From positions 2,758-66,757 of the forward strand of contig CAIVRE010000020.1 of NCBI GenBank assembly GCA_903908245.1: 64,000 nt of DNA, read 5' to 3'. Source of the stretch: Candidatus Omnitrophota bacterium (GTDB taxonomy: Bacteria > Omnitrophota > Gorgyraeia > Zapsychrales > Fredricksoniimonadaceae). The notes below the pieces were generated by a model that was given only the letters and a program-made list of their open reading frames with translations, did not search any database and had not been told where the DNA came from. Shown piece by piece: positions 45,524 to 64,000 of this stretch (the stretch's first letter is position 1; every line of letters begins with the position of its first letter). Both the position numbers and the translations under genes were made by a program.

Positions 45524-46108
45524 TTACGCATGACGCAGCACAAAAATGCCGCTGTCCGCAAGCAGATTAGTGCATGCAAAGACTTCCCGACCATTGGCAA
45601 GATACCGCGCCCGCTCAATGGTAATCCCCTTATCCGAGCAAAAATGACGAAAATCCCTCAAACTCAAAAAACGCAAATTCGGCGTGTTATACCATTTGAA
45701 CGGCAAGCGCCTGGTCACAGGCATCTCTCCCAGAAAGAACACCTGAAGACGGGCCTTCCACTGACAGAAATTCGGCACACCGACAATGACCCTTTTACCC
45801 ACCCTGAGAGCCTCATCAAGAGCCTGCTCAATGTTCAAGACCTGCTGAAGGCTTTCATTGAGGATCACAAAATCGAACCGTTTATCGTCGTAAACGCCAA
45901 GGTCGCCGTTAATATTCCCCTGCGCCACCGAAACACCGCGCTCCAGGCACTTGACGACCGCCTTGTTATCGATCTCAATACCCGTCCCGCGGCAGCCTTT
46001 CTTTTCTTTCAGTAACGCCAGAAGGTCGCCGTCACCACAACCGAGGTCAAGGACCTTGGATCCGGGCTCAATAATATCAGCGATAATCGTGTAATCGATC
46101 GGGATCAT
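45524..46108 (-). CDS. metW: Methionine biosynthesis protein MetW.
   Basis: VLDLGCGDGDLL methyltransferase-like motif. It lies downstream of metX with a 4-nt overlap. Confidence 0.8.
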   Translation of the reverse strand: MIPIDYTIIADIIEPGSKVLDLGCGDGDLLALLKEKKGCRGTGIEIDNKAVVKCLERGVSVAQGNINGDLGVYDDKRFDFVILNESLQQVLNIEQALDEALRVGKRVIVGVPNFCQWKARLQVFFLGEMPVTRRLPFKWYNTPNLRFLSLRDFRHFCSDKGITIERARYLANGREVFACTNLLADSGIFVLRHA

Positions 46109-47229
46109 GACACTCGCTCTTTATAAACTTTTGCCAGATAATTTGAAACAGCCTTCGCCTGCTCCTCCATCTCAACCAGGAAGGCATCATGTCCATAATC
46201 GGATGAAAGTTCCACATAGGAGACGTCAACATCATTCGCCTTTAATGCCCTGAGCATGGCCTGCGACTGATAAGACGGATACAGCCAGTCGGATGTAAAG
46301 CTGATGATCAGGATATCCGCAGTCACAACGCTCAAGACCTCGCTTAGTTTACGCCCGTTTTCCGTAAGGTCGAAATAGTCCATGGCTTTCGTAAGATACA
46401 CATAACTGTTCGCGTCGAAACGCTCCACAAAACTCTGCCCGCGATACTCCAGATAACCCTCGACCTCAAACTCCTTGGAAAAATTGTACCCCAGCACATC
46501 TTTCTTTACAAGTTTACGGCCGAATTTCTGCTCCATCGACGATTCACTCATATACGTGATATGCCCGATCATTCGCGCCACGGCAAGCCCGCGCTTGGGC
46601 GTAGTCTTGCCGTAATAATCCCCTCCCTGCCAATCCGGGTCGGCCATGACCGCCTGACGGCCAACCTCATGGAACGCGATCTGCTGGGCTGTATGACGAT
46701 GACACGCGGCAATAATAACCGCCGAATGGATCGCCTGGGGATACATCACCGCCCAGGCAGCAGCCTGCATCCCGCCCATCGACCCGCCAGCCACACTCAA
46801 CAGCGTCTTGATCCCTAAATGATCAATAAGCGATTTCTGCACCGTCACCATATCAGGGATCGTAATAACCGGAAAGGACAGCCCGAACGGCTTGCCGGTC
46901 TTCGGATCAATGGATGCCGGCCCTGTCGTCCCCCGGCAACTTCCAAGGACATTCGAACAAATAATGAAATATTTCTCCGTGTCAAAAGGCCGGCCCGAAC
47001 CGATCATTTCATCCCACCAACCGGGCTTATCATCGCCTTTATGATAGAACGCGGCATGCGCATCACCGGTAAAAGCATGCACGATCAAGATCGCGTTAGA
47101 CTTATCCGCGTTAAGTTTCCCGTAAGTCTCGTAAGCGATGGTAATGGGGCCAAGACGTGCGCCGCTGCGCAAGGCAAGCTCATTAGGGGGATTGGCAACC
47201 GTAATATATTGAGTTTCAACAATGGTCAT
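46105..47229 (-). CDS. metX: Homoserine O-acetyltransferase. The start is MTIVETQ.
   Basis: IVHAFTGDAHAA and SMGGMQA (catalytic Ser) motifs. Confidence 0.85.
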   Translation of the reverse strand: MTIVETQYITVANPPNELALRSGARLGPITIAYETYGKLNADKSNAILIVHAFTGDAHAAFYHKGDDKPGWWDEMIGSGRPFDTEKYFIICSNVLGSCRGTTGPASIDPKTGKPFGLSFPVITIPDMVTVQKSLIDHLGIKTLLSVAGGSMGGMQAAAWAVMYPQAIHSAVIIAACHRHTAQQIAFHEVGRQAVMADPDWQGGDYYGKTTPKRGLAVARMIGHITYMSESSMEQKFGRKLVKKDVLGYNFSKEFEVEGYLEYRGQSFVERFDANSYVYLTKAMDYFDLTENGRKLSEVLSVVTADILIISFTSDWLYPSYQSQAMLRALKANDVDVSYVELSSDYGHDAFLVEMEEQAKAVSNYLAKVYKERVS

Positions 47230-47233
47230 TTTC

Positions 47234-48280
47234 TTATTCACACAAAGGCTGAACAACGCCAGTCTTCGCACCCTGCGCATACTGGAACATCGCCTGCAAT
47301 GACTTCAATGCCTTGAGCCGAGCAGGCTCTTCAATCGTCACGATCTGCCCCTGACGCGGAGCCTTTAAAGCCTGGAGGACATCTTCCAATAAATTCGATT
47401 TCATATACTTACACAAGGTGCAACTTCCGACAAGGTCTTTATCGGGAAATTCAGCCTGCAAACGGGAGGAAAGCCCGCACTCCGTCAGCATCAGGAACTG
47501 TTTGGCCGGGCTTTTCCTCATGTAATCAAGCATCTGCTCGGTCCCTCCCACGAAATCGGAATTCGCCACCACCTGCGCGTTACATTCCGGATGGCTCACG
47601 ATCTTGGCGTCAGGATACTCCAGGCGGATCTTGAACACCTGCTCCTCGGTATATTCTTCATGCACATAGCAACTGCCCGACCAGAACCGCACCTGCTTTG
47701 AACTCTTGCGGCGTTTCATTTCATTGACCAGATTCAGGCCCATGAATTTATCAGGCAGGAAATAGATCTTGTCATTGGGAAGCCGCTCAACGATCGCATA
47801 GACATTCGCCGAAGTCACGCACACATCGCATTCGGCTTTAACATCAACACTGGTATTCACGTAGCAGATGAACGCATGATCCGGGAACTGTTGGCGCAAA
47901 CGGCGGACATCCTCCGCTGTAATGGAATCCGCCAGAGTACAGCCGGGATCACGGGCCGGGACAATGACCTGTTTCCCGGGATTAAGGATCTTGGCCGTTT
48001 CCCCCATAAATCGCACGGCAACAAAAACAATGACATCCGCCGAAGTATTAAGAACGTCACAACTAAGCTTATAAGAATCGCCTACAAAATCCGCCACCCC
48101 GTAAACGATCTCGGGAGTAACATACGAATGTGCCAGGATGACAGCGTTCTTTTCCTTCTTGAGACGCAGGATCTCGTTCACAACAGGTACCAGCTCCTCG
48201 CATTTCTTGAGCGAATACTGGCATACCTGCCCGCCGACACGAATATTCTTTAATTTGATATATAATTCCTGGGCTGTCAT
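47234..48280 (-). CDS. nadA: Quinolinate synthase A.
   Basis: 348 aa. Full-length NadA similarity with conserved Cys ligands. Confidence 0.85.
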   Translation of the reverse strand: MTAQELYIKLKNIRVGGQVCQYSLKKCEELVPVVNEILRLKKEKNAVILAHSYVTPEIVYGVADFVGDSYKLSCDVLNTSADVIVFVAVRFMGETAKILNPGKQVIVPARDPGCTLADSITAEDVRRLRQQFPDHAFICYVNTSVDVKAECDVCVTSANVYAIVERLPNDKIYFLPDKFMGLNLVNEMKRRKSSKQVRFWSGSCYVHEEYTEEQVFKIRLEYPDAKIVSHPECNAQVVANSDFVGGTEQMLDYMRKSPAKQFLMLTECGLSSRLQAEFPDKDLVGSCTLCKYMKSNLLEDVLQALKAPRQGQIVTIEEPARLKALKSLQAMFQYAQGAKTGVVQPLCE

Positions 48281-48314
48281 GATCGGGATACTATATATGA
48301 TTTTATTATTGAAT

Positions 48315-49673
48315 TCAAGGATGAAGCTCGCCCTTTAGCTGATGCGGAGTGGCACGGACAATGCGGGCATGAACGATCTGTCCGGGCGTAAATTCGCCGT
48401 TCGACAAGGTAACGATCTTGTTGGCATCATTACGCCCATAGGCGGCGCCGCTTTTTACCTTACCCGCCTGCTCCATCATGATCGCCTGAACCTGGCCAAC
48501 AAGCAATTGATTCTTCTTTAACGAAATATCCGTTTGCATCACGTTTAACCGTACAATACGCCCGGTCTTCTTGTCCTCCGGGACATCATCTTTAAGGTCC
48601 CGTGCAGCTTTAGTGTTGGGACGTACCGAATATTTAAACATGAACGCGGAATCAAACTCAACCTCGCGCATCACCCTGACCGTATCTTCAAACTCCGCAT
48701 CTGTCTCGGTAGGAAACCCGACAATAACATCCGTACTCAGAGTGATCGACGGGCAAGACTGACGGATCTTGCAGACCAGAGCAATAAATTCTTTCCCTGT
48801 ATATCCACGGCCCATCAACTCCAGGACCCGGTCATTGCCTGCCTGAAGCGGTAAATGGATCTGCTTGCAGATCTTGGGATCCTCCGCCATCACCCGGATA
48901 AGATCATCAGGAAAATCCTTGGGGTGAGGCGACGTGAAACGGATCCGCTTTATACCGTCAACCCTGGCAACAGCCTCAAGAAGCCGGGCAAAATTCTTGC
49001 CCTCATGATGATAGGAATTTACATTCTGCCCGAGTAAAGTGACCTGTTTGAACCCTTCTCCCGCAAGACGTTCAACCTCCGCAATAATATTCTCAACGGA
49101 ACGGCTGCGCTCCCGGCCTCTTGTAAAAGGAACAATACAAAAAGAACAGAAATTATTACACCCGCGCATGACCGCAACCCAGGCGTTAACTCCGTCGGTA
49201 CGGGTAGGATAAATATCCGCATAAGTCTCGAACTCGGAAAGGGTCACATCATAGCCCTGCTGATGCTCCTGCTCCAAAGCGCGCAAAATATGAGGCAACC
49301 GTTTGTAACTGTCCGGGCCTACCACAAAATCCAAAGCCAATTTCTTGTCTTCCAAAAGCTCTTTGCGTAACCCGGTAGCCATGCACCCGAGAATACCGAT
49401 CAAGACCGCCTTGCCCTGCCTGCGATGACGGATCTCGTGAATATTGCCGTAAACCTTGCGATGCGCATTCTCGCGCACGGAACAAGTGTTGAGCATCACA
49501 ATATCAGCCGCAAGTTCATCAGGCGTAAACTCATAGCCGGCATCGATCAGGATCGACTTGACCAGCTCGGAGTCGTATTCATTCATTTGACATCCGTACG
49601 TAACCAAAAGCACACTGAGTTTTCGCTTTCCGTTTCCGTCGGTGTTTTCTCTATTTCTCTCATTTGCATCCAT
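48315..49673 (-). CDS. miaB: tRNA methylthiotransferase MiaB (radical SAM enzyme). The 5' end overlaps the integrated element.
   Basis: TYGCQMNEYDSE N-terminal domain, radical-SAM CNNFCSFCIVP and a C-terminal TRAM domain. An alternative GTG start lies near 49613. Confidence 0.85.
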   Translation of the reverse strand: MDANERNRENTDGNGKRKLSVLLVTYGCQMNEYDSELVKSILIDAGYEFTPDELAADIVMLNTCSVRENAHRKVYGNIHEIRHRRQGKAVLIGILGCMATGLRKELLEDKKLALDFVVGPDSYKRLPHILRALEQEHQQGYDVTLSEFETYADIYPTRTDGVNAWVAVMRGCNNFCSFCIVPFTRGRERSRSVENIIAEVERLAGEGFKQVTLLGQNVNSYHHEGKNFARLLEAVARVDGIKRIRFTSPHPKDFPDDLIRVMAEDPKICKQIHLPLQAGNDRVLELMGRGYTGKEFIALVCKIRQSCPSITLSTDVIVGFPTETDAEFEDTVRVMREVEFDSAFMFKYSVRPNTKAARDLKDDVPEDKKTGRIVRLNVMQTDISLKKNQLLVGQVQAIMMEQAGKVKSGAAYGRNDANKIVTLSNGEFTPGQIVHARIVRATPHQLKGELHP

Positions 49674-51256
49674 TTTGTTCCCTCTTCATAGCACATCTTC
49701 CAGGGCTCATTGAGCTCGAACTTCACGATCTCACGGTCCTGTATTTTGATCTCTTTGAATATGATCCTCATGAAAGTTTTCATGAGAAAACTTCTTCCCT
49801 CATCGTCCGCAGGCTCGGCGCGGAGCCTTAAAAGGAAGTCCTGGACGGCCCTCACGATGTTCATCGAATTGCGCCTGTCGATGATCTTGATCTGCACGTC
49901 CCGAATGTCCTGCTTGAGCCTCTTCTCTTCCTGACGTAAAGCATCAGCCTTGTCCTTGTAAAGTTCAAGGTTGATCTTATCCTCGGAGAAAAGCTCGTAT
50001 AAACCCTTCTGCTTGTCGATGTTCTTTTTAAGCAGATCCTCTTTCTCGGTCAACTGGTCCACATAGACCTTCTCAGGCTCGGAAGCGTTCAACTTAATAG
50101 CGTCCGTCAAGCCCTCAAGAACATGAACATTCTTCCGAATAACATCAATAATGTCCCAAGCCTGCTTTTCGATCTCGTCAGCAGTCACGGACTTATTGTT
50201 ACAGTTTATATGCTTTATCCCTACCGAAGAGCAGCGATACCAGGCACGCTTCTTCCCGATCCGGCGGTTTGAGATGACCATGACCCCGCGATAATTCCCT
50301 CCGCACTCATTGCACTTGAGAATGCCGGAAAGATGATAAATGCTGTTCCGAAACTTAACCACGGCATTGGTCCGGTTTCTGCTAAGAAGCACCTGGACCT
50401 CATCATACTCTTTTTGCGTAATGATCGGCTCGTGGGTGTTCTGGACCTCGATGACCTGGGTCGGGGCATTATTCACATACTTATAACCCTTGCCGAAGCC
50501 GTTCTTCGTCTTCTCTTTGGTGTTATAACGACGACGATTCCAGACAAGACTGCCAAGGTAAACCTTGCTCCGCAGTATGGTCGAAAGGAATTTGTTATAA
50601 AACCGGCCGCCCATCCGTGAAGGAACGCCGAGCGCGTAATAATGCGCGCATATCTGAGGCGTACTCTTACCGCTTAAATACATTGCGAAGATATCTTTGA
50701 CGATCTTTGCCTCTTCAGCGTGGACTTCGAGTTTCTTGGTCTCTTTATTGTAGCGGTAGCCATAAGGCGCATACCGCGCACCCTGCCAACGGCCTTTCTT
50801 GACACCCACGACCATGCCCGGGAACACACGCTCAACAAGCCGGTTGCGCTCGAACTCCGCGCAACTGCCGAGCATCTGGATCGCCATCTTGCCCGCGCTT
50901 GAGGTCGTGTCAAATGGCTCCGTGGCTGACTTATAGCCCACGCCAAGGTTTTCAAACTCTTCAAGCATCCCCAAAAGGTCCTTGAGGCGACGGCTCAAAC
51001 GATCCTGCTTATACACAAGGATCAGATCAAATTGCTTATTTCGCGCGTCCAGAAAAAGCCTCTGCAAGGCCGGCCTGTCCATGTTGCCGCCGGAAAAGCC
51101 GTCATCCATGTAAACATCCCTGTTAGGGATACTGCAAAAGACCTCCCAGCCGAAATTCTTCGCGTACTGCAAAAGAAAGTTCCGTTGAACCTCCAGGGAA
51201 TAACCCTCCCTGGCCTGGTCCTCCGTACTGACCCTTGTATATAACGCGACTCTCAT
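49583..51256 (-). CDS. Large serine recombinase (integrase).
   Basis: N-terminal resolvase domain ALYTRVSTEDQ...GYSL (catalytic Ser). This is followed by a recombinase domain and a CxxC zinc ribbon plus coiled coil. 557 aa. Confidence 0.85.
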   Translation of the reverse strand: MRVALYTRVSTEDQAREGYSLEVQRNFLLQYAKNFGWEVFCSIPNRDVYMDDGFSGGNMDRPALQRLFLDARNKQFDLILVYKQDRLSRRLKDLLGMLEEFENLGVGYKSATEPFDTTSSAGKMAIQMLGSCAEFERNRLVERVFPGMVVGVKKGRWQGARYAPYGYRYNKETKKLEVHAEEAKIVKDIFAMYLSGKSTPQICAHYYALGVPSRMGGRFYNKFLSTILRSKVYLGSLVWNRRRYNTKEKTKNGFGKGYKYVNNAPTQVIEVQNTHEPIITQKEYDEVQVLLSRNRTNAVVKFRNSIYHLSGILKCNECGGNYRGVMVISNRRIGKKRAWYRCSSVGIKHINCNNKSVTADEIEKQAWDIIDVIRKNVHVLEGLTDAIKLNASEPEKVYVDQLTEKEDLLKKNIDKQKGLYELFSEDKINLELYKDKADALRQEEKRLKQDIRDVQIKIIDRRNSMNIVRAVQDFLLRLRAEPADDEGRSFLMKTFMRIIFKEIKIQDREIVKFELNEPWKMCYEEGTKWMQMREIEKTPTETESENSVCFWLRTDVK

Positions 51257-51700: not shown

Positions 51701-52048
51701 AAATGGCTAAAACCTTCGCATTTTACGAACACGAAGTGATGAAAAAAATTTCGTGTCACTGACGACCCGCGGTCGCGCCGACCCGCGCCCGCCGCCCCCC
51801 TGTAAGGACCCGGAAGCACCCCCGGCCCTCACTCTGTGAGGTATGTGAGGGTAAAATCCCTACCCTTTTTTACCTTCACCTTCCACGCCTGTGTTGACCA
51901 CATTCCCGCCCTTCTTTCTCTACTTTTATAGAGAAGAGAAATAGCCTCACACTGCTCACAGCCTGCCCTATCCCTTTGGAGCAGGACGACTTGCCCCTGT
52001 GAGTACGCCTGTGACCAGACGTGAGCATGAACTCCTTTGCTCACGCCT
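51701..52048. promoter_or_regulatory. Non-coding region with repeated CTCAC/GTGAG motifs (TGCTCACAGCC, twice; TGCTCACGCC, twice).
   Basis: About 350 bp with no convincing ORF. Several copies of GCTCAC(A/G)GCC lie in both orientations. Confidence 0.35.
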
Positions 52049-54430
52049 TTAATACGGCCGTTCGCTGAACATATCCGAATCCTCCTCACAAACAGCATCC
52101 TTTCTCACGTCCTGCTCACGCCCATGCTCACAGCCTCCAGGCATCATCTTTCGGATGATGAACAGACGCCTTCCTGTGCCGCCTTCGCGCTTGTCCTGCT
52201 TGATGACATCAACACCCACATTTCGCATGACCGGGGCAATTCGCAGTAATTCCGTGGAAAGCCATTTGGCTGTTTTTGGCAGTCCATGTTCTTCACTGTC
52301 CCGGGGCGTTATCTCATAAAGCAGTTCCGTTGCTGATCCTGCCCAGTGCCCGGCGTGCCTATCCATAAGTGTAAGAAGTTTCTTGGCGAGGGCGCTATCC
52401 TCGGCCGTTTCCTGCCACTTTCGGTCAACAGACTCCTGATACTTGCGGAAGAACTCTTCCCTGGAATACCCCAGCGCCTCGGCCAATGCCGCACCCCACT
52501 GGGCAAAGTCTGACATCCGGAACTTTTCATGACCGGTTACAGACGACACCATGCCCATGGCTCTGGATACTGCCGTAATAAACCCACCGAAAATACCTGG
52601 CAAAGCAGTTTTCCAATCCTCCTCCATTGCCCTCTCAGAGCGTGTGTTCCTGAGGACCGGAATATCAAAGATGATCGCCCGATCCAACAGGTCTGCCCGC
52701 CACATCGAAGATCCAATGCCATTAAGGACAAAACAGCGACGGTATGAACGGATGAATTCATCGTCATTGGTATAAAGACTGCGCTTCATATCGCCTTCAC
52801 CGGTCACACCCCGGCAAAGGAAATCGCTGAACCATTCGATGATCTTGGAGATATTGTCAAAAGTGCTGAGCCAATGCTTCTCGGCAGTCATCTGCGCCTG
52901 TTCAAGGTCTTTGGGTGTTGAGATGAGCATGACGCGTGACGGATCACACAGCGCCTTGATCTTTCGGGAATTGTTCGACTTACCCGAACCCTGCTCCCCG
53001 GTCTGACTGATGATGACATGAGGAAAATTGGGAATAAAGAATGACGCCACAGCCACCATGAAAAGGCAATGGTCTAAAGGACTGACATTGCAGAATCGAA
53101 GAAGATCCCGGGCATTCCCGCCAGCAACTGGAATGACCTGCTCGGCCTGATGCAGATATCTCCGGAAGACCGGAGGCAGTTGGACTACGTTCCATCCATT
53201 CGCTGTTATCTCAACGCCCCGATGGTCAGGCGTGGTGAGGTCGTAATATATCTTTCCATCCGCCCATCCGACCCGATTGAACAGCTCAACCTGCCGGGAT
53301 GCTCCACACCTGGCCTCTATCTGAACACGCGCCTGGGTTAAAGCCTCGGTCTTGGGAGGAAGTCCGTAACGGTTACGGAACCGGATCGCCTTCCAGTTGC
53401 GGAACCTCATGCTTGATGTGGGGCAAACCTCAACATGCTCATCCACCGGCAGGACCACGAACGAACCGGCATGTTGATCCCGGAAAAAGTCTTTAATGTT
53501 CTCTTCGCAGTCCCGGGTGATGATCTCCCCCTGGCTCAGCTTACCCTTACCGGCTGGCCCCGGCGCCCTACCTTCACCATATGCCTCCTGACATCCACTA
53601 ATGGCCTTATCAATGACCGCTTGGCCATAGGTGCGCCCATCCGAGAAATGCTTCTCATCCCATTTAGGACGCATTAGACCCGATGCGCGGAACATCTCAT
53701 CCATAAGCGCCGCGTCCTTGCCTGTCCAGAAAGCCAGTTTCGCGCAAAAGGCCAGGTCAGCCTCAGACTGCGACGGATAATCGCCCTGCCAGTTCCCAGC
53801 CTTCAGCTTGGCAAAAGCTCCAGAATCTTTGCTCTTCTCGATCTTCTCAAGAATATCCTGACGGTGCTTGATCAGCGACTCTTTACGCTCACACTCATCG
53901 TAAAACGCAAGCACCTGTGACGCGCGATCTTCAATAGTTACCGCGTAACCCGGGACCAGGTCGCCGGTGACGGTCCAAAATCTTGTTTTTTGGTAGATCT
54001 CGATATCAAGCGTGCTGAATTTCCGCCCTTTTTCAAGAACGCCTTTGCAAAGAATATGAAGCCCGGTCTTTGATGGTGAAAATTCCGTGTAGCTGTTAAA
54101 GGCCTCGATGATCCTCCTGGCCCACGGCTGAATAACGCCATCAATGACCGAATGATCCAGATCTATCCCTACATAAGGCGGTTCTAGTCCGATCCCAACG
54201 GCATCGATCCCAGGCTTCCCGGCTCTCTTCATTGCCTCATCGAAAGAAGCCCACGTCCCCAGCTTATTGGACATGGCCTTGCCGCCGGTCCTAACATTGA
54301 CAGGCTCTTTCTTTGGTTTCTTGCCTTCCTGGGGAATGAACTTAAAGCCTATCCAGTTCGGCAGGTCTTTCAATTCCTGTGGAATGTTCTCAACGATCCA
54401 TCTCTTCTCTGTTCTTCTCTCGGTAACCAT
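52049..54430 (-). CDS. Primase-helicase, made of a bifunctional Prim-Pol N-terminal domain and a D5/P4-type SF3 helicase. The start is MVTERR.
   Basis: Prim-Pol motifs VGIDLDH and SPSKTGLHILCKG. Walker A GEQGSGKS sits in the middle. Confidence 0.7.
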   Translation of the reverse strand: MVTERRTEKRWIVENIPQELKDLPNWIGFKFIPQEGKKPKKEPVNVRTGGKAMSNKLGTWASFDEAMKRAGKPGIDAVGIGLEPPYVGIDLDHSVIDGVIQPWARRIIEAFNSYTEFSPSKTGLHILCKGVLEKGRKFSTLDIEIYQKTRFWTVTGDLVPGYAVTIEDRASQVLAFYDECERKESLIKHRQDILEKIEKSKDSGAFAKLKAGNWQGDYPSQSEADLAFCAKLAFWTGKDAALMDEMFRASGLMRPKWDEKHFSDGRTYGQAVIDKAISGCQEAYGEGRAPGPAGKGKLSQGEIITRDCEENIKDFFRDQHAGSFVVLPVDEHVEVCPTSSMRFRNWKAIRFRNRYGLPPKTEALTQARVQIEARCGASRQVELFNRVGWADGKIYYDLTTPDHRGVEITANGWNVVQLPPVFRRYLHQAEQVIPVAGGNARDLLRFCNVSPLDHCLFMVAVASFFIPNFPHVIISQTGEQGSGKSNNSRKIKALCDPSRVMLISTPKDLEQAQMTAEKHWLSTFDNISKIIEWFSDFLCRGVTGEGDMKRSLYTNDDEFIRSYRRCFVLNGIGSSMWRADLLDRAIIFDIPVLRNTRSERAMEEDWKTALPGIFGGFITAVSRAMGMVSSVTGHEKFRMSDFAQWGAALAEALGYSREEFFRKYQESVDRKWQETAEDSALAKKLLTLMDRHAGHWAGSATELLYEITPRDSEEHGLPKTAKWLSTELLRIAPVMRNVGVDVIKQDKREGGTGRRLFIIRKMMPGGCEHGREQDVRKDAVCEEDSDMFSERPY

Positions 54431-54775: not shown

Positions 54776-55480
54776 CTCTAGGGCGTACATACAGGAAATT
54801 CTTTGAAAGTGTCGGGATGATCGTAAAAATATTTTGTCTGCCCCCCTAAGGCGTATATAGCGCTAATTTCATAAAAGTGTTACAGGTCATCTTGAGAATT
54901 TTTACTTCTAATGCGTACATACCGCGAAATTCACGAAAGTGTCGGAGGGTTCATCACTTTTCTGACCTATACTCGTACATACCGCCTTTTCCCCGAGAAT
55001 GTCGCGCGAAATCCTAACTTTTCATGCCCCTCTTAGGGATATATCCGAAAAACCTCAAAACTGTGCCCAATTACCTCAAGAATTTTTCCACTCACTAAGA
55101 CATATGCGGAAAAACCCAAAAGTGTTGCATGATTGCTGAAAATAACCTGCTCAAGGGTCTTCATCTTGGATATAGCCCGAGAAAGCCAAAAATGTGTTAG
55201 GGCAATTCAATAATCCCTCACCATTGATATACCGGCAAATTTGACAAACTGTTACACACGAGCAAAGCCTTTTTTGCCTCTCAATGCGTATATATGCGAA
55301 GAATGGCAAAAGTGTATCCATGAATCTGCCGATATTCGCGCAACCCCTAAGGCGGATATATGCGAAACAATGCAAAAACTTGTACGCCATATCAGAAATC
55401 TCTACGGAAAAGCGCGCGAAGCCCCTTACTGCTGATATACCGGAAAATATGAGGAATTGTCGGAGGGTAATCGAGGAAAC
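54776..55480. repeat. Array of about 11 degenerate direct repeats with a ~62-bp period, iteron-like. Each unit has a palindromic GCGTATATACGC-like box followed by a GAAA...AAAGTGT box.
   Basis: Units start near 54781, 54848, 54910, 54972, 55035, 55098, 55168, 55226, 55286, 55349 and 55432. Examples are GGCGTATATAGCGC, TGCGTATATATGCG and GGCGGATATATGCG. Confidence 0.7.
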
Positions 55481-55578
55481 AAAAAAAGCCTGCCTCCGCA
55501 ATTAAGCGAAAGCAGACTTAACAAAAGCACCCAATAATTTATTATGAACGCTTAGAGCAAGCCAACCCTAACCACTCT

Positions 55579-55965
55579 TCACTTTTTACTATCTGACTTC
55601 ACATTCGCCTTAATGCAGGCGAGCAAATCCTCCAAACTCACCGGCTTGGCCAGACAGGGATAGTCATTAACCTTCGTTTTATGGCCGTCGCCTGCTTTAC
55701 GCTTGGCCACAAGGGCTGTTATATACACAATCGGAATGTCCTGGCAAATGGGGCAATCTTTCAACTCGTGTGCGACCTGGCATCCATCCATATCAGGCAT
55801 CATAACATCGAGCAAAATCAGATCAGGACGAAATTCCTTAACAATATCGCAAACACGACTTCCTTTATTCTCGACCCTGACATTATAAAGAGTTTTCAGA
55901 TTCGCCTTCACTCCCCGCGTGAAAGCCTCTTCATCATCAACAACCAGTATTCTTTTCCTGTTCAT
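55579..55965 (-). CDS. Stand-alone response-regulator receiver domain (CheY-like).
   Basis: ILVVDDEE...LILLDVMMPDMDG...K motifs. There is no output domain. Confidence 0.8.
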   Translation of the reverse strand: MNRKRILVVDDEEAFTRGVKANLKTLYNVRVENKGSRVCDIVKEFRPDLILLDVMMPDMDGCQVAHELKDCPICQDIPIVYITALVAKRKAGDGHKTKVNDYPCLAKPVSLEDLLACIKANVKSDSKK

Positions 55966-55978
55966 ACCCGCCCTCCAG

Positions 55979-57727
55979 TTATATCTTAAACCACAACGTT
56001 GCACGAACGCCCCGCCCGTTTGTCTTATTCTCCAACGCGATCCTGCCCTCATGCATCTCCATAATATTTCTTACAATCGATAATCCCAGCCCCGTACCAC
56101 CTACAGCGCGTTTCGTCGTTACGAAAGGAACAAACAAATCCTTAAGAATGCTCTCCGGCATTCCTGAACCATTGTCTTCGATCTGAACCATCACCATTTG
56201 CCGCTTGTCACTTGAGCCTGCCCGAAAAGTCCTGATCTGAAGATCCCCTCCGGATGGCATAGCCTGAATGGCATTCATAAAAAGATTTACAAAAACCTGT
56301 TCAATCTTGTTCCTGTCAATGCTCACTTCAGGAATGTCTTTTCCAAAATTCCTTATCACACGAACATTGCTTTTTTCGCGAGAATGCTTCACCAACGACA
56401 AAGATCTGTCAATCAGCACATGAACATCCTGTGTTTTAATTTCAAGCTCTGAGCTGGCTGAGAAATCCAAAAGCCCCTTGATGATCGTATCCGCACGATT
56501 AATCGCGTTCTCAGCATCCGCCAAACTGGCACTTACGTCCTCATCCTGGGATTTAACATTATTCTTGAGGTAATCCACGCTCATTTGGATCACAGCCAGC
56601 GGATTCTTTACCTCGTGAGCCACCCCGGCAGCTAATTTGCCAATAACCTCCAGTTTCGCCGACTGGATAAGCAATGACTGTGTCGCCCTTAATTCTGCGT
56701 TCTTTCTTTTTTGATCCCGATAAAAGATAAGCGCCGACAAGAACAGTGCGCCGAGAACAAGTCCAGCGAAGCTGATATTGTTTCTGGTGTTCCTTCTGAC
56801 CGGACCAGCGATCGTATTATAATCTATTGCGCTGACCAAAGACCATGTATTCCCTCCAAATGACACCGGCGAGAAAGCCACAATGACTTCCGCTGTCTTA
56901 TATGAATCATCCAAAGAAAACAACTGACATAATCCAGAACCGTCCTCTCCTCTGTGGATCCTCGCCATCAGCGCTTTAAATCGGATTTCCTCAAGAGATA
57001 AGTGCTTGTCCTGAAGGATCGTTAATAAACTCTGACCGAGATAATGATTATCGGGATAACTCAAAAGACGATCTTTCTGATCGAGAAGAAAGAAATGTCG
57101 GCCACCTTTTTCATTGCGACTCACAACGGCCTGCAAGTCTTCCAGGCTAATAACAGCACGCAACAGACCAACAAACTTGTCCTTACTGAATACCGGCTGA
57201 TCAAAAATCAGAACAGGCGTGCCCGAGGCCGTATTGACTATCCCGCTGGCATACACTCGATGATCCGCCGATTCCTTTTGAATATCATTCTCTGAAAAAG
57301 AAGCCTTTCCGACACTACTCCTGGGAGGAACTTCATAAATAATCCTGCCCTTATCATCAACCATGCTTAAAGAAGTCGCCAAGGATTTAACATCTTTATA
57401 GGAATCATCCAAGAAAGGAAACCCGGCTTCTTTTTCCCTGCCGTAACCATAAGAGAAGGCATCCTGGACGACCTTATCCTCGGAAAGAATTTCTAGTTCC
57501 TGCGTCAAATCAGAAATGCGTCGATTTAGCGATCGAGATTCTGAAGATACCGTTTCCAAAAGCTGCCGACGAGCGTTATCAACAATCGTTCTTTCAAAAT
57601 TATTGTGGTCTTGCCAAACAAAATAGCCGACAACGATCACCACAATGATCATGCCCGTGTATGGCAGTATTTTCTTTAGAAAAGTATCCATTGCTTGCCT
57701 TGAAAAGCACTCTCTGTGATTAGACAA
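55979..57727 (-). CDS. Sensor histidine kinase with an N-terminal transmembrane anchor and a periplasmic sensor domain.
   Basis: H-box AAGVAHEVKNPL, with N, G1 and G2 boxes (GGTGLGLSIV). Confidence 0.85.
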   Translation of the reverse strand: MSNHRECFSRQAMDTFLKKILPYTGMIIVVIVVGYFVWQDHNNFERTIVDNARRQLLETVSSESRSLNRRISDLTQELEILSEDKVVQDAFSYGYGREKEAGFPFLDDSYKDVKSLATSLSMVDDKGRIIYEVPPRSSVGKASFSENDIQKESADHRVYASGIVNTASGTPVLIFDQPVFSKDKFVGLLRAVISLEDLQAVVSRNEKGGRHFFLLDQKDRLLSYPDNHYLGQSLLTILQDKHLSLEEIRFKALMARIHRGEDGSGLCQLFSLDDSYKTAEVIVAFSPVSFGGNTWSLVSAIDYNTIAGPVRRNTRNNISFAGLVLGALFLSALIFYRDQKRKNAELRATQSLLIQSAKLEVIGKLAAGVAHEVKNPLAVIQMSVDYLKNNVKSQDEDVSASLADAENAINRADTIIKGLLDFSASSELEIKTQDVHVLIDRSLSLVKHSREKSNVRVIRNFGKDIPEVSIDRNKIEQVFVNLFMNAIQAMPSGGDLQIRTFRAGSSDKRQMVMVQIEDNGSGMPESILKDLFVPFVTTKRAVGGTGLGLSIVRNIMEMHEGRIALENKTNGRGVRATLWFKI

Positions 57728-57801: not shown

Positions 57802-57984
57802 CTACTTAATTCCCAGCCTTTGCAATATCCACATCATAGGACACCAATTGGTAAACGCTGACTGAAACAGGTTCAGCCCAATAAAGGCCGTGAACCAGAG
57901 CCACAACGGACTAACATAATGCGCCAACAACAAACTGATCAATAAAAAGACCCCTGCTATACCTCTTAATGTTCTTTCCATCAT
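57802..57984 (-). CDS. DUF2892-family small inner-membrane protein.
   Basis: 60 aa with two transmembrane helices. It overlaps the RND gene 3' end. Confidence 0.5.
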   Translation of the reverse strand: MMERTLRGIAGVFLLISLLLAHYVSPLWLWFTAFIGLNLFQSAFTNWCPMMWILQRLGIK

Positions 57985-60900
57985 TTCGCCCTCCTTGGAT
58001 TGACGCGCAACCGACCTAATGCTGCCAGCATAGACTGCACGCTTGATTTCATCCGGGACAAAAACGACCCGGATGTTTTTGGTAAACCTGAATGACCATT
58101 TTTCGGCCTCATAACCATGTAATAAACGACCGGTATAGCGGTGCGTGCCAAGAGCGTTGAGGCGATCTCCCCGGCCATCAAGGACAATGCGAGCCCCTGA
58201 AAGATCGGATCGAACAGGATAACCGAAGCACCAACGACAACCGCCGCCGCTGTCAAAAGCATAGGGCGGAATCTCTTGGCCCCGGCATCAATGACAGCCT
58301 CTTCCAACGGCATCCCTTCCCTGACGCGCAGTTCGATAAAATCCACAAGGATGATCGAGTTGCGCACAACGATCCCTGCCCCCGCGATCATGCCGATCAT
58401 AGACGTAGCTGTAAAGAACATCCCCGTCATCCAGTGCGCTGGTAAGATACCGACCAGCGTCAGAGGAATAGGTAGCATGATGATGAACGGCGTCTTGAAC
58501 GACTGGAACCATCCCACAACAAGCGTAAAGATCAGGATCAGTACAATCGCGAAAGCAATCCCGAGATCACGGAATACTTCAAATGTAATCTGCCATTCTC
58601 CGTCCCATTTGATCGACCAGCGGTCATTGGTTTCCGGCTGGTTCGTGAACAAGAGATCCGGCTTCTTTTGCGCTTCAAGTTTCGGCTCCGGAAGTGACAA
58701 CTTTTCAAGTCCGCCGTTCAGATCCATCATGGCATACACGGGGCTATCAAACCGGCCCTGAACATCTCCGATCACATATGACACCCGTTCAAGATTCTTG
58801 TGATAGATCGTATAGTCCTTAAATGTCTTCTCGACAGTGACGAGATCTTTGATCGGTATCCGGTTGCCGAACCTGGATAAGACAGTCATGTCTAAAGTCG
58901 CGTCTAAAGTTTCACGCTTTTCTTTCGGCAACCTCATAACGATCTCCAGAGGTTCATTCTCACCAGAAAGATGCGCGAGATCAGTCTTGCTCCCCTGGAT
59001 CGTGCCGGAAATAATCGCTGCCACAGAATCCACCGGAACCCCGTTCAAAGAACATTTCTGTTTGTCGATTTTTAAACTATCCAGCTTCTCCTGACGCCCG
59101 ACATAACTGTCAACGTCCGTAACGCCAGAGTTGCTATTAAAAAGAGCCTCGACATCACCGGCAAGCTTGCGCTGACCTTCTAATGTCGGACCGTATACCT
59201 CCAACACCAGCGTCGAGAGCACCGGTGGGCCCGGCGGGACTTCCGCGACCTGAACATGTCCGTTGTATTTTGAAACGATCTCATGCACCTTGGAACGAAC
59301 AGAAGTCGCGATCGCATGACTCTGGCGCTTACGCTCATCCTTCCCAACTAAATTAACCTGAAGATCGGCCTGCCATGGTTTGGAGCGCAGAAAATAATAA
59401 CGGACCAGTCCATTAAAATTGTACGGCGCACTCGTCCCAACATAAGCCGTGATATTCTTCACTTCCGGCGTTGCGCTGATATAGGTCGCCAGTTCATTGA
59501 TAGCCGCCTTGGTCTGATCCAAAGACGCGCCTTCCGGCATGTCCAACACCACCTGGAACTCATTCTTGTTATCAAACGGCAGCATCTTAACCTTGACCAG
59601 TTTAAGCGGAACAAGCATGATCGCAGCGGCCAGCATCACCAAAAGCACGATGATAAACCCTTTACGAACCTTCGAACTATAGATCAACGGCTTCATGTAC
59701 GAACGATAGATCCTCGTCAAAAGATCGTCTTGTTCCCCATGCTCACCATGATCCTTGAGCTTTCCCTGCCGTTGTGCATGCCCAAGTATCCTGTAGGCAG
59801 CCCACGGTGTAGCGACAAACGCCACCATCATAGAAAAGACCATGGCCATGCTGGCCCCAATCGGAATCGGACGCATGTACGGCCCCATCAGGCCGCTGAC
59901 AAACGCCATGGGCAAGATTGCCGCAATTACTGTGAGCGTGGCGAGGATAAGCGGACTTTGAACTTCCTTGAAAGCCTCAATCGTTACATCCAATAGATCG
60001 CGCCCCTTGTTCTTCGCCATGCGAAGATGCCGGACGATATTCTCAACTCCAACTATAGGATCATCGACCAGAATACCGATAGAGAATATAAGCGCAAAAA
60101 GCGTGATCCGGTTCAGCGTGAAGCCAAGAAAATAGAACCCCGCCAACGTCAAAGACAGCGTCATTGGGATCGCGATAGCCACAACCCCTGATTCACGCCA
60201 ACCCAGCGCAAACGCCATCAGGAGAGTCACGGCAACAACCGCGATCAGCATGTGAAAAAGAAGCTCGTTGGACTTCTCATCCGCCGTTGCACCATAATTA
60301 CGAGTGACGGTATAGGTAACATCACCGGGGATCACCTCTCCCTGTAAGCCTTCGACCCTTTTCAATATCTTTTCACACAGCCGTGAAGCGTTGGAACCTT
60401 TCCTTTTCGAGACCGAAAGCGTCACTGCATCGAACGGCCCTTTAGCACTGGACTTGTCCGCCGCACCAAAACGGATATCAACCGCGTTTTCCTCTTCATC
60501 AGGACCGTCGACAATCCTGGCAATGTCCTTCAAATAAACCTGTCCACCCTGGCTGACGCTGATCACAAGGTTCTCTAGATCTTCTTTAGACCGGAAGAAC
60601 CCGTCAGCTTCAACATTCACAAGCTCCGGGCTGCTTTCCAGATGCCCTGCCGATGTCTTCACATTGGCTTGCTGGATCAAACGGCTTATTTCAAGAGGGT
60701 TCAGGAACCGCTCGTTCAATTTCGCTTCATCAAGATACACATGAAACTGTCTCTTGCGACCGCCTGTGATGCCGGTTTCAGATACATCCGGGATCGCGCT
60801 AATACTATTCTGAACATCAGACACAACCTTTCGCAGGCGCACCTGATCGGCTTTCTCGCCATGGAACGTCAATGTCATCACTGGGACATCATCGATCGAC

Positions 60901-61316
60901 CGGATCTTGATGAACGGCTGAGAACCGCCTTTGGCAAGCACATCAAGATTAGAGTGAACCTTTGTGTAAAGCTTGATCAGGCTCTTCTCAACATCTTCAC
61001 CAACCTTAAACCGGACGGTGATAACCGCGCCTTCAGCCTGAGTAATGGAATAGACATACTCAACGCCATTGATCTCCCAAAGCTTGCGTTCACCAACGTT
61101 GACGATACGACGTTCGACCTCTTCCGCCGTAGCCCCCGGATAGGAAACAAAAATATCAAACATCGGCACGGATATCTGCGGCTCCTCTTCCCTCGGCAGG
61201 TTGATGACGGCCATCACACCCAGAAAGATCGAAAAGCCGATAATAAGGGGCGTGACCTTTGACTTAACAAAGACCCCGACAACCCGGGCGATAAAACCTT
61301 CTTGCGGTGTGCTCAT
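57981..61316 (-). CDS. RND efflux permease (AcrB/CzcA family).
   Basis: 1111 aa with 12 transmembrane helices and two large periplasmic loops. N-terminal AcrB-like motif. Confidence 0.9.
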   Translation of the reverse strand: MSTPQEGFIARVVGVFVKSKVTPLIIGFSIFLGVMAVINLPREEEPQISVPMFDIFVSYPGATAEEVERRIVNVGERKLWEINGVEYVYSITQAEGAVITVRFKVGEDVEKSLIKLYTKVHSNLDVLAKGGSQPFIKIRSIDDVPVMTLTFHGEKADQVRLRKVVSDVQNSISAIPDVSETGITGGRKRQFHVYLDEAKLNERFLNPLEISRLIQQANVKTSAGHLESSPELVNVEADGFFRSKEDLENLVISVSQGGQVYLKDIARIVDGPDEEENAVDIRFGAADKSSAKGPFDAVTLSVSKRKGSNASRLCEKILKRVEGLQGEVIPGDVTYTVTRNYGATADEKSNELLFHMLIAVVAVTLLMAFALGWRESGVVAIAIPMTLSLTLAGFYFLGFTLNRITLFALIFSIGILVDDPIVGVENIVRHLRMAKNKGRDLLDVTIEAFKEVQSPLILATLTVIAAILPMAFVSGLMGPYMRPIPIGASMAMVFSMMVAFVATPWAAYRILGHAQRQGKLKDHGEHGEQDDLLTRIYRSYMKPLIYSSKVRKGFIIVLLVMLAAAIMLVPLKLVKVKMLPFDNKNEFQVVLDMPEGASLDQTKAAINELATYISATPEVKNITAYVGTSAPYNFNGLVRYYFLRSKPWQADLQVNLVGKDERKRQSHAIATSVRSKVHEIVSKYNGHVQVAEVPPGPPVLSTLVLEVYGPTLEGQRKLAGDVEALFNSNSGVTDVDSYVGRQEKLDSLKIDKQKCSLNGVPVDSVAAIISGTIQGSKTDLAHLSGENEPLEIVMRLPKEKRETLDATLDMTVLSRFGNRIPIKDLVTVEKTFKDYTIYHKNLERVSYVIGDVQGRFDSPVYAMMDLNGGLEKLSLPEPKLEAQKKPDLLFTNQPETNDRWSIKWDGEWQITFEVFRDLGIAFAIVLILIFTLVVGWFQSFKTPFIIMLPIPLTLVGILPAHWMTGMFFTATSMIGMIAGAGIVVRNSIILVDFIELRVREGMPLEEAVIDAGAKRFRPMLLTAAAVVVGASVILFDPIFQGLALSLMAGEIASTLLARTAIPVVYYMVMRPKNGHSGLPKTSGSFLSRMKSSVQSMLAALGRLRVNPRRAK

Positions 61317-62695
61317 AGCCCGGCTCCTTCTGCTAATTTCTTCATTTCATCTTCATTGAGTTGACCGGTCAAGAAAAGCAATCGCGCCTCTGACAACCAA
61401 ATTCCCATCAAAGCCTTGTTATATGATTGTGCTGACTGTAAATAGGCCCGACGGACTTCTAACAGGTCCGCGATTGACTTGCGCCCTTCACTATAAAGCG
61501 GTACCACAAGGGTCACCGCCTCTTTTGCATCATCGGTCATGCCTTTTAGAACAGCCATGTTATCCCGGAGCGTGTCATAACGTGCGGTTTCTTCGGTAAT
61601 GTCGCGTCCGATAGAATCTTTGAGAATCTGAACATTGTGTTCCAGCTGATCTTTTCTGGCTTTCGCCTCTTTAACCCGTCCCTCACGCGAAGGATCAAAG
61701 AGCGGCAATTCAGCCTTAACGCCGACGGTATAGTTATTCCCGCCTGATTCTCCGACATTGTTCCTGTCATTGGTCGCATCACCAAATGCGCTTAAAGTCG
61801 GTAATACCGTCGATTTCTCACGGGACAGTTCGAAATCAAAAGCCTGAAGACGAGCGTTAAGCGAAGACAAATCAGGACGATTGGCCAATGCCATTTCCAT
61901 TAACTTCTGCTGATCCTGTAATGGCGCTTCTGCCTCTTTGATCGTACTGGTAAGCGTCCAGGCCTTATCCACTGACTCGCCCATCAAGATATTCAAAAGT
62001 GCTGTCATAGCGATCTTCTGACGAGCGATCTCATTCTTCATCCGCGTAAAATCGCCGAACATAACACGAGCTGAATAGTAGTCTGCGCCCAAAATCATGC
62101 CCTTGTCCTTCAGATCCTTTGCCTTTTGAAGATCATCATCAGAGTTCTTCTGCACCTCATTGATAATAGCTGATAGTTTTTCCAATGTCAGCGCGTTCAA
62201 ATAAGCGTCTTGCGCCATCAGCAGCGCTTCCATTTTTGTGTACACCTCATCCGCTTGGGATGCTTTCACAAACTCTCTGGCTGAACGCGCCCGACCAATC
62301 GTCTGCATGGCATCAAAGAGCGGCCATTCCGCATGAACCCCGGCAGAAAAGTCCTGATGATGGTCTGGCGTATTCAATCGCTTGAGATCAAAGTCAGCCG
62401 ATGTGAAACGTTCCTGACGAAGAAGCATGCCAAACACATTCACCGGATCATCGCTGACCTTATATCCGGCTGACAAGTCCAAAGAAGGCCAAAACCCTGA
62501 CTGTGCCTGCATCTTCTTTGCCAATGCAATATCAACATCGCTATGAGCGGCTTTAAGCTTTGGATAATACGCGAGAACTTTCTGGGAGAATGCCTGAAAC
62601 GATAAGGCGGGCGCGCTGGACGACACTTCACCGGCGAATGACGCCGTTGTAAAAAGGATTCCAGTAAAAACAGCCAAGAGTAGTCGAGATAGCAT
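61313..62695 (-). CDS. TolC-family outer-membrane efflux factor. The start is MLSRLLL.
   Basis: Signal peptide plus a duplicated OEP coiled-coil/beta repeat architecture. About 460 aa. Confidence 0.75.
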   Translation of the reverse strand: MLSRLLLAVFTGILFTTASFAGEVSSSAPALSFQAFSQKVLAYYPKLKAAHSDVDIALAKKMQAQSGFWPSLDLSAGYKVSDDPVNVFGMLLRQERFTSADFDLKRLNTPDHHQDFSAGVHAEWPLFDAMQTIGRARSAREFVKASQADEVYTKMEALLMAQDAYLNALTLEKLSAIINEVQKNSDDDLQKAKDLKDKGMILGADYYSARVMFGDFTRMKNEIARQKIAMTALLNILMGESVDKAWTLTSTIKEAEAPLQDQQKLMEMALANRPDLSSLNARLQAFDFELSREKSTVLPTLSAFGDATNDRNNVGESGGNNYTVGVKAELPLFDPSREGRVKEAKARKDQLEHNVQILKDSIGRDITEETARYDTLRDNMAVLKGMTDDAKEAVTLVVPLYSEGRKSIADLLEVRRAYLQSAQSYNKALMGIWLSEARLLFLTGQLNEDEMKKLAEGAGL

Positions 62696-62706
62696 CTTTA
62701 TTCTCC

Positions 62707-63624: not shown

Positions 63625-63625
63625 T

Positions 63626-64000
63626 TTACCCTTTTCGCCCGGTTACCAAGAAGACATCAAACACCCTGTCCTGGCCATCTGCCCCTGTCTTCTTCATTTG
63701 TGCGGCAGTCATAAAATGAACATCCGTGAATCCTGCGTCTACGAACAATCCACCAAGCTTCTCCCGGTTAAAGCCAAAATGAAAGACTCCGTCGTTATTA
63801 TCATGAAACCGACCACCTTCTTCATCCAGGTCAGCAATGGCGATCTGCCCGCCCGGAAGCAATGCCCCATAAAAATGTTCAAGAAGCTTTTGAGTATCTT
63901 TAACATGATGAAGTGTCATGCTGCTTACGACCGCATGATAATGATCGCCGACGACATCGCCCTTGGTTAAATCAAGATAACGCGTCTTAACATTATCTAC
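63626..64000 (-). CDS. Class I SAM-dependent methyltransferase. It is truncated by the window edge.
   Basis: The reading frame stays open to position 64000. The C-terminal methyltransferase region is LLPGGQIAIADL. Confidence 0.5.
   Translation of the reverse strand, partial: VDNVKTRYLDLTKGDVVGDHYHAVVSSMTLHHVKDTQKLLEHFYGALLPGGQIAIADLDEEGGRFHDNNDGVFHFGFNREKLGGLFVDAGFTDVHFMTAAQMKKTGADGQDRVFDVFLVTGRKG

Follow-up and report, generated by a model that had tools for sequence, protein, structure and literature searches.

Replacement of the 5' end of a tRNA-modification gene by a mobile element has been described for the dusA-associated integrase (DAI) islands and prophages, which target the 5' end of dusA and replace it from the island, the gene remaining intact (Farrugia et al. 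2015, PMC4482086). The DAI are the closest functional analogue of the element examined here, a very probable integrative element of about 5.99 kb at the 5' end of miaB in a 64,000-nt stretch of DNA from a Candidatus Omnitrophota bacterium (the window, meaning the whole stretch analysed; all coordinates refer to it). Both carry an island-borne 5' end for a tRNA-modification gene, but DAI encode tyrosine recombinases and target dusA, whereas the window element encodes a large serine recombinase (LSR) and targets miaB. Only in the window element does the recombinase open reading frame (ORF) itself contain the replacement 5' end, by overprinting.

An attP within the integrase coding sequence, with integration altering the 3' end of the gene and with it the protein C-terminus, has been reported for IntP/IntX of myxophage Mx8, whose targets are the chromosomal attB1 and attB2 (PMC6070905), and for the integrases of the fusellovirus SSV (PMC4383910). 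The family of the window recombinase shares the location of attP inside the integrase gene with Mx8 and SSV, but its recombinases are of the serine and not of the tyrosine type. Unlike in Mx8 and SSV, only short tail changes occur, and the new stop lies within a protein-coding target. The attB1 and attB2 sites of Mx8 are in tRNA genes, Mx8 swaps about 112 residues, and integration of SSV splits the integrase gene in two.

The domain architecture of the window LSR is that of TP901-1, SPbeta SprA, A118, phiC31, Bxb1 and phiRv1. Phage serine integrases often enter protein-coding genes, and the recombination directionality factor (RDF) of phiRv1 is an excisionase-type helix-turn-helix (HTH) protein. 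To our knowledge, attP lies outside int in the known phage serine integrases, and the target is mostly disrupted or modified at its tail, not rebuilt at its 5' end. The serine recombinases CcrAB of SCCmec use an attB at the conserved end of an RNA-modification gene, rlmH (orfX), which is kept, and form tandem arrays, such as were also observed in one locus of the present family (L160); SCCmec differs in using the 3' end of its target and in having no overprinting on the recombinase gene. Satellites resembling phage-inducible chromosomal islands (PICI), and integrative plasmids, carry int, xis, a primase-replicase and an iteron origin. The window element shares with PICI-like elements the small size, the integrase, an excisionase-like HTH protein, a primase-polymerase, iterons and the lack of structural genes, but its integrase is of the serine and not of the tyrosine type, no packaging or capsid-redirecting genes were recognised in it, and no helper phage is known. 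No description of a miaB/serine recombinase arrangement was found in open-access full text, including that on LSRs of Omnitrophota and on attP-overlapping serine integrases, and the family of elements is apparently undescribed.

According to the ORF list, the recombinase and miaB shared positions 49583-49673, an overlap of 91 nt that decreased to 31 nt if the in-frame GTG at 49613 (Val21) was taken as the miaB start, in agreement with the original prediction made from this DNA. The features at the overlap were the following:

51256-49583, minus strand: large serine recombinase, 557 aa, catalytic Ser10 in YTRVSTEDQ (Pfam; PHROG integrase 8e-113)
49673-48315, minus strand: chimeric miaB, 452 aa, residues 1-27 element-derived and 28-452 host-derived
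49687-49593, minus strand: P arm of attL (element DNA), with Shine-Dalgarno (SD) sequence, new ATG, 20-codon extension and VLLVTYG codons; its +1 frame is the recombinase C-terminal tail
49592-49591, minus strand: proposed attL crossover TG, opening the MiaB Cys28 codon TGT; its T also closes a recombinase GAT codon
49590-49583, minus strand: start of the B' arm (host DNA), T-CAA-ATG-A, including the recombinase stop TGA at 49585-49583; the same arrangement occurred in 44-46 metagenome loci

The 557-aa protein was classified as an LSR because it matched Resolvase (PF00239, 1.1e-33, residues 3-157), Recombinase (PF07508, 4.9e-21) and Zn_ribbon_recom (PF13408, 1.3e-10). Its Ser10 was invariant in the 30 homologues compared. 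Identity to serine integrases of cultured phages did not exceed 35% and was confined to residues 1-451, the C-terminal 100 aa or so being family-specific; the nearest solved structures were the TP901-1 catalytic domain (3e-29) and SPbeta SprA (2.6e-19). The 452-aa protein matched UPF0004, Radical_SAM and TRAM in Pfam and the NCBIfam MiaB equivalog TIGR01574 (455 bits; cutoff 355). Its translation contained the cluster cysteines Cys28 (host-encoded, at the junction), that of LNTCSVRE and that of ILGCMA, and the radical-SAM motif CNNFCSFC. As read from the sequence, Met30 and Asn31 of the conserved MiaB motif TYGCQMN are encoded by ATG-AAT, which contains the recombinase stop, and the recombinase ORF therefore enters sequence that every MiaB gene must have. 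The overlap was not due to chance, because homologous recombinases ended likewise in MiaB-family genes at 3 of the 80 MiaB loci from reference genomes and, among 59 loci from metagenomes, at 46.

The arrangement would result from an attP x attB exchange by the serine recombinase, inserting the element into the 5' end of miaB near its tenth codon, with the crossover at the TG of the first cluster-ligand Cys codon (T-Y-G-C-Q-M-N). The attP would lie within the 3' end of the recombinase gene, and its P arm would carry, in the other frame, an SD sequence and an ATG, followed by a 20-aa spacer and by VLLVTYG, which copies the first beta strand of MiaB. Integration would leave miaB working as a chimera whose transcription comes from the element and whose translation begins within the recombinase ORF, 91 nt from its end, and the attP-encoded C-terminal extension of the recombinase would be swapped for three host codons and a host TGA.

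Occupied and empty miaB sites were compared in a reference survey in which one genome per species was scanned with MiaB, yielding 80 loci (best match 71% identical, in an Omnitrophota metagenome-assembled genome). No recombinase and a short native start (MKKVFLETYGCQMN) were found in 77 of the 80. A long N-terminal MiaB extension was present in exactly the three loci with a homologous recombinase (L005, 64% identity; L018, 61%; L019, a remnant), which bears out the earlier proposal of an integrative element at the miaB 5' end. Each occupied host was nearer to some empty-site genome than to the other occupied hosts, and the distribution is therefore patchy, as expected of a mobile element. The original prediction had counted the same recombinase-miaB overlap in relatives, with no empty site, as evidence against insertion; the overlap did occur in relatives and is a hallmark of the family, but empty sites, attR sites and intact attP sites occurred too. 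Synteny upstream of miaB was not conserved in distant relatives and was uninformative.

Comparison with close homologues (L and four-digit P numbers denote nucleotide loci and protein sequences, respectively, in the comparison sets) located a break on each side of the junction. The recombinase of L252 was 91% identical to that of the window, and the DNA about 95% identical through ...GTGTGCTTTTGGTTACGT[A/T]CGGATGTCAAATGAA, with abrupt divergence right after ATGAA because L252 is inserted in a different MiaB paralogue (NFRDSEII vs. NEYDSELV in the window). Similarly, the first 27 residues of P0253 were those of the window (MDANERNRENTDGNGKRKLSVLLVTYG), joined to a MiaB only 74% identical. On the host side, L256 (MiaB 85% identical, same downstream synteny) held a different element of the family, and L257 (81%) held a recombinase-less element. 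Homology of both to the window existed only from about 49603-49601 downstream, with 38 of 40 bases identical right after the TG and about 50% before it.

Across the family, attP-like, attL, attR and attB sites had T[TA]YGGnTG in common, with divergence following it. When attR and attP sites of independent origin were compared, homology extended from the TG into the P' arms but not into the left arms. The attP sites were palindromic about this putative central dinucleotide (e.g., AACCTTCGGCT and GGCCGGTGGTT on its two sides in L137). The window junction and the target were as follows:

Window junction context: ACGTACGGA-TG-TCAAATG
Proposed miaB attB: about 50 bp around ACCTAYGGNTGYCARATGAAYGA

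On the basis of the element-side breaks (L252, P0253), the host-side breaks (L256, L257) and the attP palindromes, the crossover is assigned to the TG in the Cys28 codon. An att junction within the first codons of miaB, as had been claimed, thus agreed with two independent comparisons.

Among the candidates scored, 714 recombinase homologues were found at E ≤ 1e-30. Among the best 120, which extended to as little as 43% identity, almost every one ended in ..[CFY][FCW][WCV]xP[ST][DA][VA][KR] before the stop. This tail results when the codons for V-L-L-x-T-[YF]-G-C-Q-M-N are read in the +1 frame, the stop falling in ATGAAY. Targets were several MiaB paralogues (NEYDSE, NxRDSE and NxYDS types); three of four tested passed the MiaB equivalog cutoff and the fourth was just under it. 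The metagenome set comprised the 59 loci with the recombinase 3' end on the contig, distributed as follows:

Ending in a MiaB-family ORF: 44 loci, plus 2 variants
Intact attP-like: 11 loci
Truncated: 2 loci

In the attP-like loci (L088, L091, L092, L100, L110, L113, L137 and others), the recombinase ORF continued for 10-50 codons across attP, and integration therefore shortens the recombinase tail. Cargo genes lay downstream of the attP-like sites, as expected for circular permutation. L091 carried genes for an OLD nuclease and a UvrD helicase (Gabija-like) and for a TIR protein, together with type I restriction-modification (R-M) genes, and a cargo ORF of L100, read by eye, resembled an AbiE-type antitoxin. 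An intact attP with phage-like genes was present in L172 (an IMG/VR contig). Sites of attR type with native ATG-bearing B arms, and with the displaced native miaB fragment at the far end of the element, were found in L160, L138 and L257.

The extension in the attP form (e.g., ..SDDEWV/LxAYxxxLxFLKELF) kept its frame among recombinases that are only distantly related to one another, each 42-75% identical to that of the window. That the recombinase has two state-dependent isoforms, an extended one in the free attP form and one cut three codons after the crossover by the host stop in the integrated form, is a doubtful suggestion; such a tail switch could tune directionality or activity, by analogy with what is reported for Mx8 IntP/IntX. 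On the same doubtful reading, the essential-motif target and the start supplied by the element would tie MiaB expression to the element, a form of addiction, and recombinase-less hitchhikers (L160, L257) would find a landing pad at the site.

Several loci of the family showed more complex arrangements at the miaB site. A tandem array occupied one miaB site in L160 (positions 86, 1987, 5993 and 11650; also L124, position 3973), with a true attR retaining the native start (MNETKILLKTFG), two internal att-like sites and then a recombinase-bearing element. The left arms of the internal sites had their own ATG (MNKQNKPLKVSIKSFG) and no recombinase, and these segments may be hitchhikers mobilised in trans. 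In L257 (3502-6028), a clean attR (MNKKVFLTTFG, TGA and P') lay 2.5 kb upstream of miaB with only Bro-N, SLT and Imm-NTF2 genes and no recombinase in between; the occupant of this site either lacks a recombinase of its own or is an element in decay. Incomplete duplicates of the B' arm (CAGATGAATGARTATGA) or of the miaB 5' end sat just upstream of apparently native miaB genes in L017 (203-300 and 1211-1240), L001 (about 100 nt upstream of miaB) and L257 (about 5960). They resemble scars of past integrations, and the miaB site is therefore regarded as a hot spot. In L137, a single contig carried an intact attP-like site (11106) and, 6 kb downstream of it and similarly oriented, an apparently native-start MiaB-family gene (17365). 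This could reflect a tandem composite, a miaB carried by the element or an assembly error.

The SD sequence GAAGAGGG (49687-49680) doubled as codons for E-E-G of the conserved CYEEGxK motif of the recombinase and was followed after 6 nt by the new miaB ATG (49673-49671). An SD-like sequence was located 6-9 nt ahead of the new ATG in nearly all of 50 integrated loci. Downstream of the ATG, 20 low-complexity codons preceded VLLVTYG, the stand-in for the native first strand. The MiaB profile match (UPF0004, TIGR01574) began at residue 21-23 and was continuous from there; the 20-aa extension is therefore extra, and the first strand is replaced like for like. The element encodes MiaB residues 1-27, so that the integrated target stays full length, and the host supplies everything from Cys28 on, including the TGA stop of the recombinase.

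No terminator was found between the recombinase and miaB. Because of this lack and the displacement of the native upstream DNA, miaB may be transcribed from the HTH-recombinase operon of the element. The earlier claim that the element supplies the promoter and the 5' coding end of miaB stood for the coding end, to which an SD sequence, an ATG and 27 codons can now be assigned; the promoter, of which none was identified, is a conjectural part of that claim.

Public assemblies annotate a 423-aa MiaB starting at Met30 (ATG at 49586). That start removes the cluster ligand Cys28 and is therefore almost certainly wrong; in about 12 of the 59 closest MiaB homologues listed, the annotated start was likewise the truncated MNE[YS]D. 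A decayed element was observed in L019 (9660-10031), in which the last 123 recombinase codons were left, adjoining a truncated radC-like ORF (translation read by eye), and the element-derived miaB start and extension were retained. This suggests that the rebuilt miaB 5' end was kept by selection after the death of the element.

The remaining features of the element, in minus-strand order from the P' arm at its far end to the LSR, were:

55519-55486, minus strand: terminator-like hairpin of intrinsic type, 14 pairs followed by a T run
54779-55468, no strand assigned: about 11 iteron-like repeats, spacing 57-78 bp, repeat families D1-D6
54663-54433, minus strand: DUF5659 protein (Pfam), 76 aa, next to the primase also in L147, L105, L133, L118, L113 and L106
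54430-52049, minus strand: NrS-1-like primase-polymerase with a C-terminal helicase-like region, 793 aa (public call) or 809 aa from GTG 54478
51694-51500, minus strand: orf64, a conserved small protein without assigned function, tblastn matches in more than 40 related loci
51435-51259, minus strand: HTH_17/MerR-type excisionase-like protein, 58 aa, stop 2 nt before the recombinase ATG

The element is probably self-replicating. The iteron unit on the minus strand was GACACTTT-N12-14-CGTATATACGC, and the iteron region is a putative replication origin; the same repeats were found upstream of DUF5659 in L118, L113 and L106. Tandem Repeats Finder reported nothing in the iteron region because the copies are too diverged, and they were visible only in a general repeat search. 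The primase-polymerase matched NrS1-1_pol-like_HBD in Pfam (6.8e-29) and DNA primase/helicase in PHROGs (5.6e-71), with orthologues of 60-73% identity in L133, L118, L105 and L093. The module from the iterons to the recombinase was conserved in L133, L118, L105, L147, L113 and L106. In the region of the primase stop (window about 52038-52071), independent contigs of the same population ended within about 35 nt of that stop (L081 starts at 52056, L247 ends at 52038 and L249 ends at 52071), which hints at a second, partly identical copy or a variant of the element in the community.

The small HTH protein directly upstream of the recombinase, to which the original prediction had drawn attention, was confirmed. 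It had MerR-like and excisionase matches in PHROGs (8e-5 to 7e-4), its DNA was 70-80% conserved beside the recombinase in more than 40 related loci, and its homologues in L252 and L088 were called HTH_17; the ORF was absent from the gene calls of the public assemblies. It is a candidate RDF or regulator. Screening of the element ORFs against PHROGs and Pfam showed that the interval from the regulator gene to miaB is devoid of recognisable genes for virion structure or packaging, and gave no helper-phage hijack genes (packaging, capsid size redirection).

For the far end of the element, the best candidate and the circle junction rebuilt with it were:

55581-55566, minus strand: putative attR, a weak match, with TG (55581-55580) in the response-regulator stop TGA followed by the P'-like AAGAG-TGG-TTAGGG
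Rebuilt circle (attP) junction: ...ACGTACGGA-TG-AAGAGTGGTT; ...GGTTACGTACGGA-TG-AAGAGTGGTTAGGG

The putative attR fitted the family pattern TG-N5-TGG-TT, and 12 of its 14 bases were those of the P' arm of L168. The attP rebuilt with it gave a recombinase tail ..RTD-EEWLGLACSKRS before the stop, comparable to ..SD-DEWV/DDWL/DEWL in P0003, P0017 and L168. It was followed by the tail, the terminator and the repeats, in the same order as after attP in L100 and L110. Its host-side arm was the 3' end of the regulator and not miaB codons. The half-site that had been suggested for 55480-55600 was thus matched on the P' side, if weakly, but its host-side arm was not the displaced miaB 5' end. Between 51256 and 64000, no second GGnTGYCARATG, no ACnTWYGGnTG on either strand and no translated [TS][FYW]G-stop was found, and a palindrome scan was negative.

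The block of AcrB, YgaP, histidine kinase and response regulator (HK-RR) beyond this end was host DNA, since the related genome L253 was 88% identical over AcrB/OEP and 70% over HK-RR. Synteny with L253 stopped about 20 nt before the regulator stop, after which L253 had DUF347-TetR, and the last six residues of the regulator (KSDSKK) were missing from its orthologues. The chromosome has therefore been rearranged with a breakpoint right at the far end, possibly through recombination between two element copies or by action of the recombinase at a secondary site. Because the host arm at this end is the regulator and not miaB, precise excision would not restore native miaB, and the window copy may be locked in. 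The segment at 55599-57692 (70% identical to L253) had a GC dip of 0.41-0.47 vs. about 0.50; positions 57806-64000 made up the 88% identical AcrB/OEP region.

Several results weigh against interpreting region 55580-49593 as an element of about 5.99 kb integrated into the miaB 5' end by attP x attB recombination. For this species, exact-protein look-ups with NadA, the response regulator, DUF5659 and the closest recombinase proteins gave no empty site and no circular junction, at least 10 population contigs all being occupied and identical, and viral contigs scanned for the P arm of this lineage did not contain it. The far end lacked a canonical attR, and no displaced miaB 5' fragment was present anywhere in the 14 kb upstream. 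The P'-like match at the regulator stop was only modestly above chance (p of about 0.005-0.01, a rough estimate and not a computed value), and an nhmmer profile of 20 P' arms gave no significant match. No promoter was identified, a sigma-70 scan giving no more sites than shuffled sequence, and TG at 49592-49591 is the exact crossover dinucleotide that we infer from homology breakpoints and palindrome symmetry. Integration of such an element as a whole was nevertheless judged highly likely, and the alternatives differed in how much of it they would change. A 9-bp direct repeat, GTGCTTTTG (49613-49605 and 55530-55522), was first taken as the att core and was rejected after the L252, P0253 and L256/L257 comparisons. 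A crossover there, with the element bounded by GTGCTTTTG and GTG as the native miaB start, would account for the exact repeat at both element ends and for the symmetric 8-bp inverted repeat AAGCGAAA/TTTCGCTT about it in an attP rebuilt on it, but is hardly credible: L252 and P0253 were identical to the window through GTTACGTWCGGA despite residing in different MiaB genes, the sister hosts L256 and L257 were not homologous to the window within the GTGCTTTTG stretch, and the attR and attP arms of the family broke at the TG and not about 20 nt upstream. That the 91-nt overlap is an ORF-calling artefact, with MiaB really starting at GTG 49613 or ATG 49586 and the upstream ATG meaningless, is quite unlikely. 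Public gene callers did choose the 423-aa MiaB from Met30, and GTG 49613 would give MLLVTYGC, about 1-2 residues shorter than the shortest native starts seen. The Met30 start, however, drops Cys28 and the first strand, which fall within the UPF0004 and TIGR01574 matches starting at residue 21-23; GTG 49613 has no SD sequence, whereas ATG 49673 has GAAGAGGG 6 nt upstream, and the SD-ATG pair was kept in nearly all 50 integrated loci. Both the overlap and the junction persist with either start.

As for the extent and present state of the element, it is very improbable that the recombinase belongs to a larger prophage reaching elsewhere in the window, the outcome that had been named as contrary to insertion of a small element. 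The family member L172 carried an internal-virion-protein and an endolysin-like gene, and other members carried more than 10 kb of cargo; against this, there were no capsid- or packaging-type genes between the regulator gene and miaB, the conserved module stopped at the iterons, and the flanking HK-RR-AcrB genes were host genes, syntenic in a relative. A serious possibility, concerning present activity and not origin, is that the insertion is real and the copy now fixed, its far end rearranged, miaB no longer restorable by excision and the host dependent on the P arm. Consistent with fixation, the host arm of the putative attR was the response-regulator 3' end, the synteny of the AcrB-YgaP-HK-RR host block with L253 ended within about 20 nt of the regulator stop, the population contigs were all occupied, and L019, with its last 123 recombinase codons and rebuilt miaB start, represents such an end state. 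On the other hand, the window retains intact ORFs for the recombinase, the HTH protein and the primase, the presence of almost the same P arm in two further MiaB genes (L252, P0253) implies that the lineage moved recently, and the lack of empty sites may reflect the sampling of one population.

Under integration into miaB as proposed above, these elements define a large, mostly Omnitrophota-associated family of serine integrases whose attB is a coding motif of about 30 bp, at the first MiaB cluster Cys. Because this attB lies in one of the most conserved bacterial coding motifs, natural targets are predictable in many genomes, and the recombinases are candidates for broad-host-range tools. A single stretch of 91 nt would serve by overprinting as recombinase tail, half of a recombination site, ribosome-binding site and N-terminus of a host enzyme, and the idea of an integrase spanning attP would be extended from tyrosine to serine recombinases. 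At such sites, automatic annotation mis-calls MiaB, the Met30 start deleting the cluster ligand.

Larger family members (L005, 1-8200; L091, 2976-12632; L088, 1-4100) carried defence-type cargo, comprising type I R-M, TIR-domain, OLD nuclease plus UvrD helicase (Gabija-like) and SIR2 genes. An inserted ..D[APS]RFRG[NDH]D.. stretch was observed in the recombinase tails of P0009, P0019, P0022, P0026, P0028, P0029, P0031 and L019. In L019 it was coded by the palindromic ttcccgctttcgcgggaa, within the linker that joins CYEEGxK to the att arm, and it looks like a small palindromic repeat element tolerated in both overlapping frames. Downstream of the junction, window positions 46094-48364 (2271 bp, comprising nadA, an abhydrolase gene and the 3'-terminal 50 nt of miaB) were 100% identical in L083, L084 and L085. 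These contigs differed from the window in what lay upstream, which in L083 was nuoL/M/N-glyoxalase, and all three broke at 46094. Since this segment codes for the end of the MiaB profile, the arrangement in L083 looks derived, which suggests a strain-level rearrangement or a repeat.

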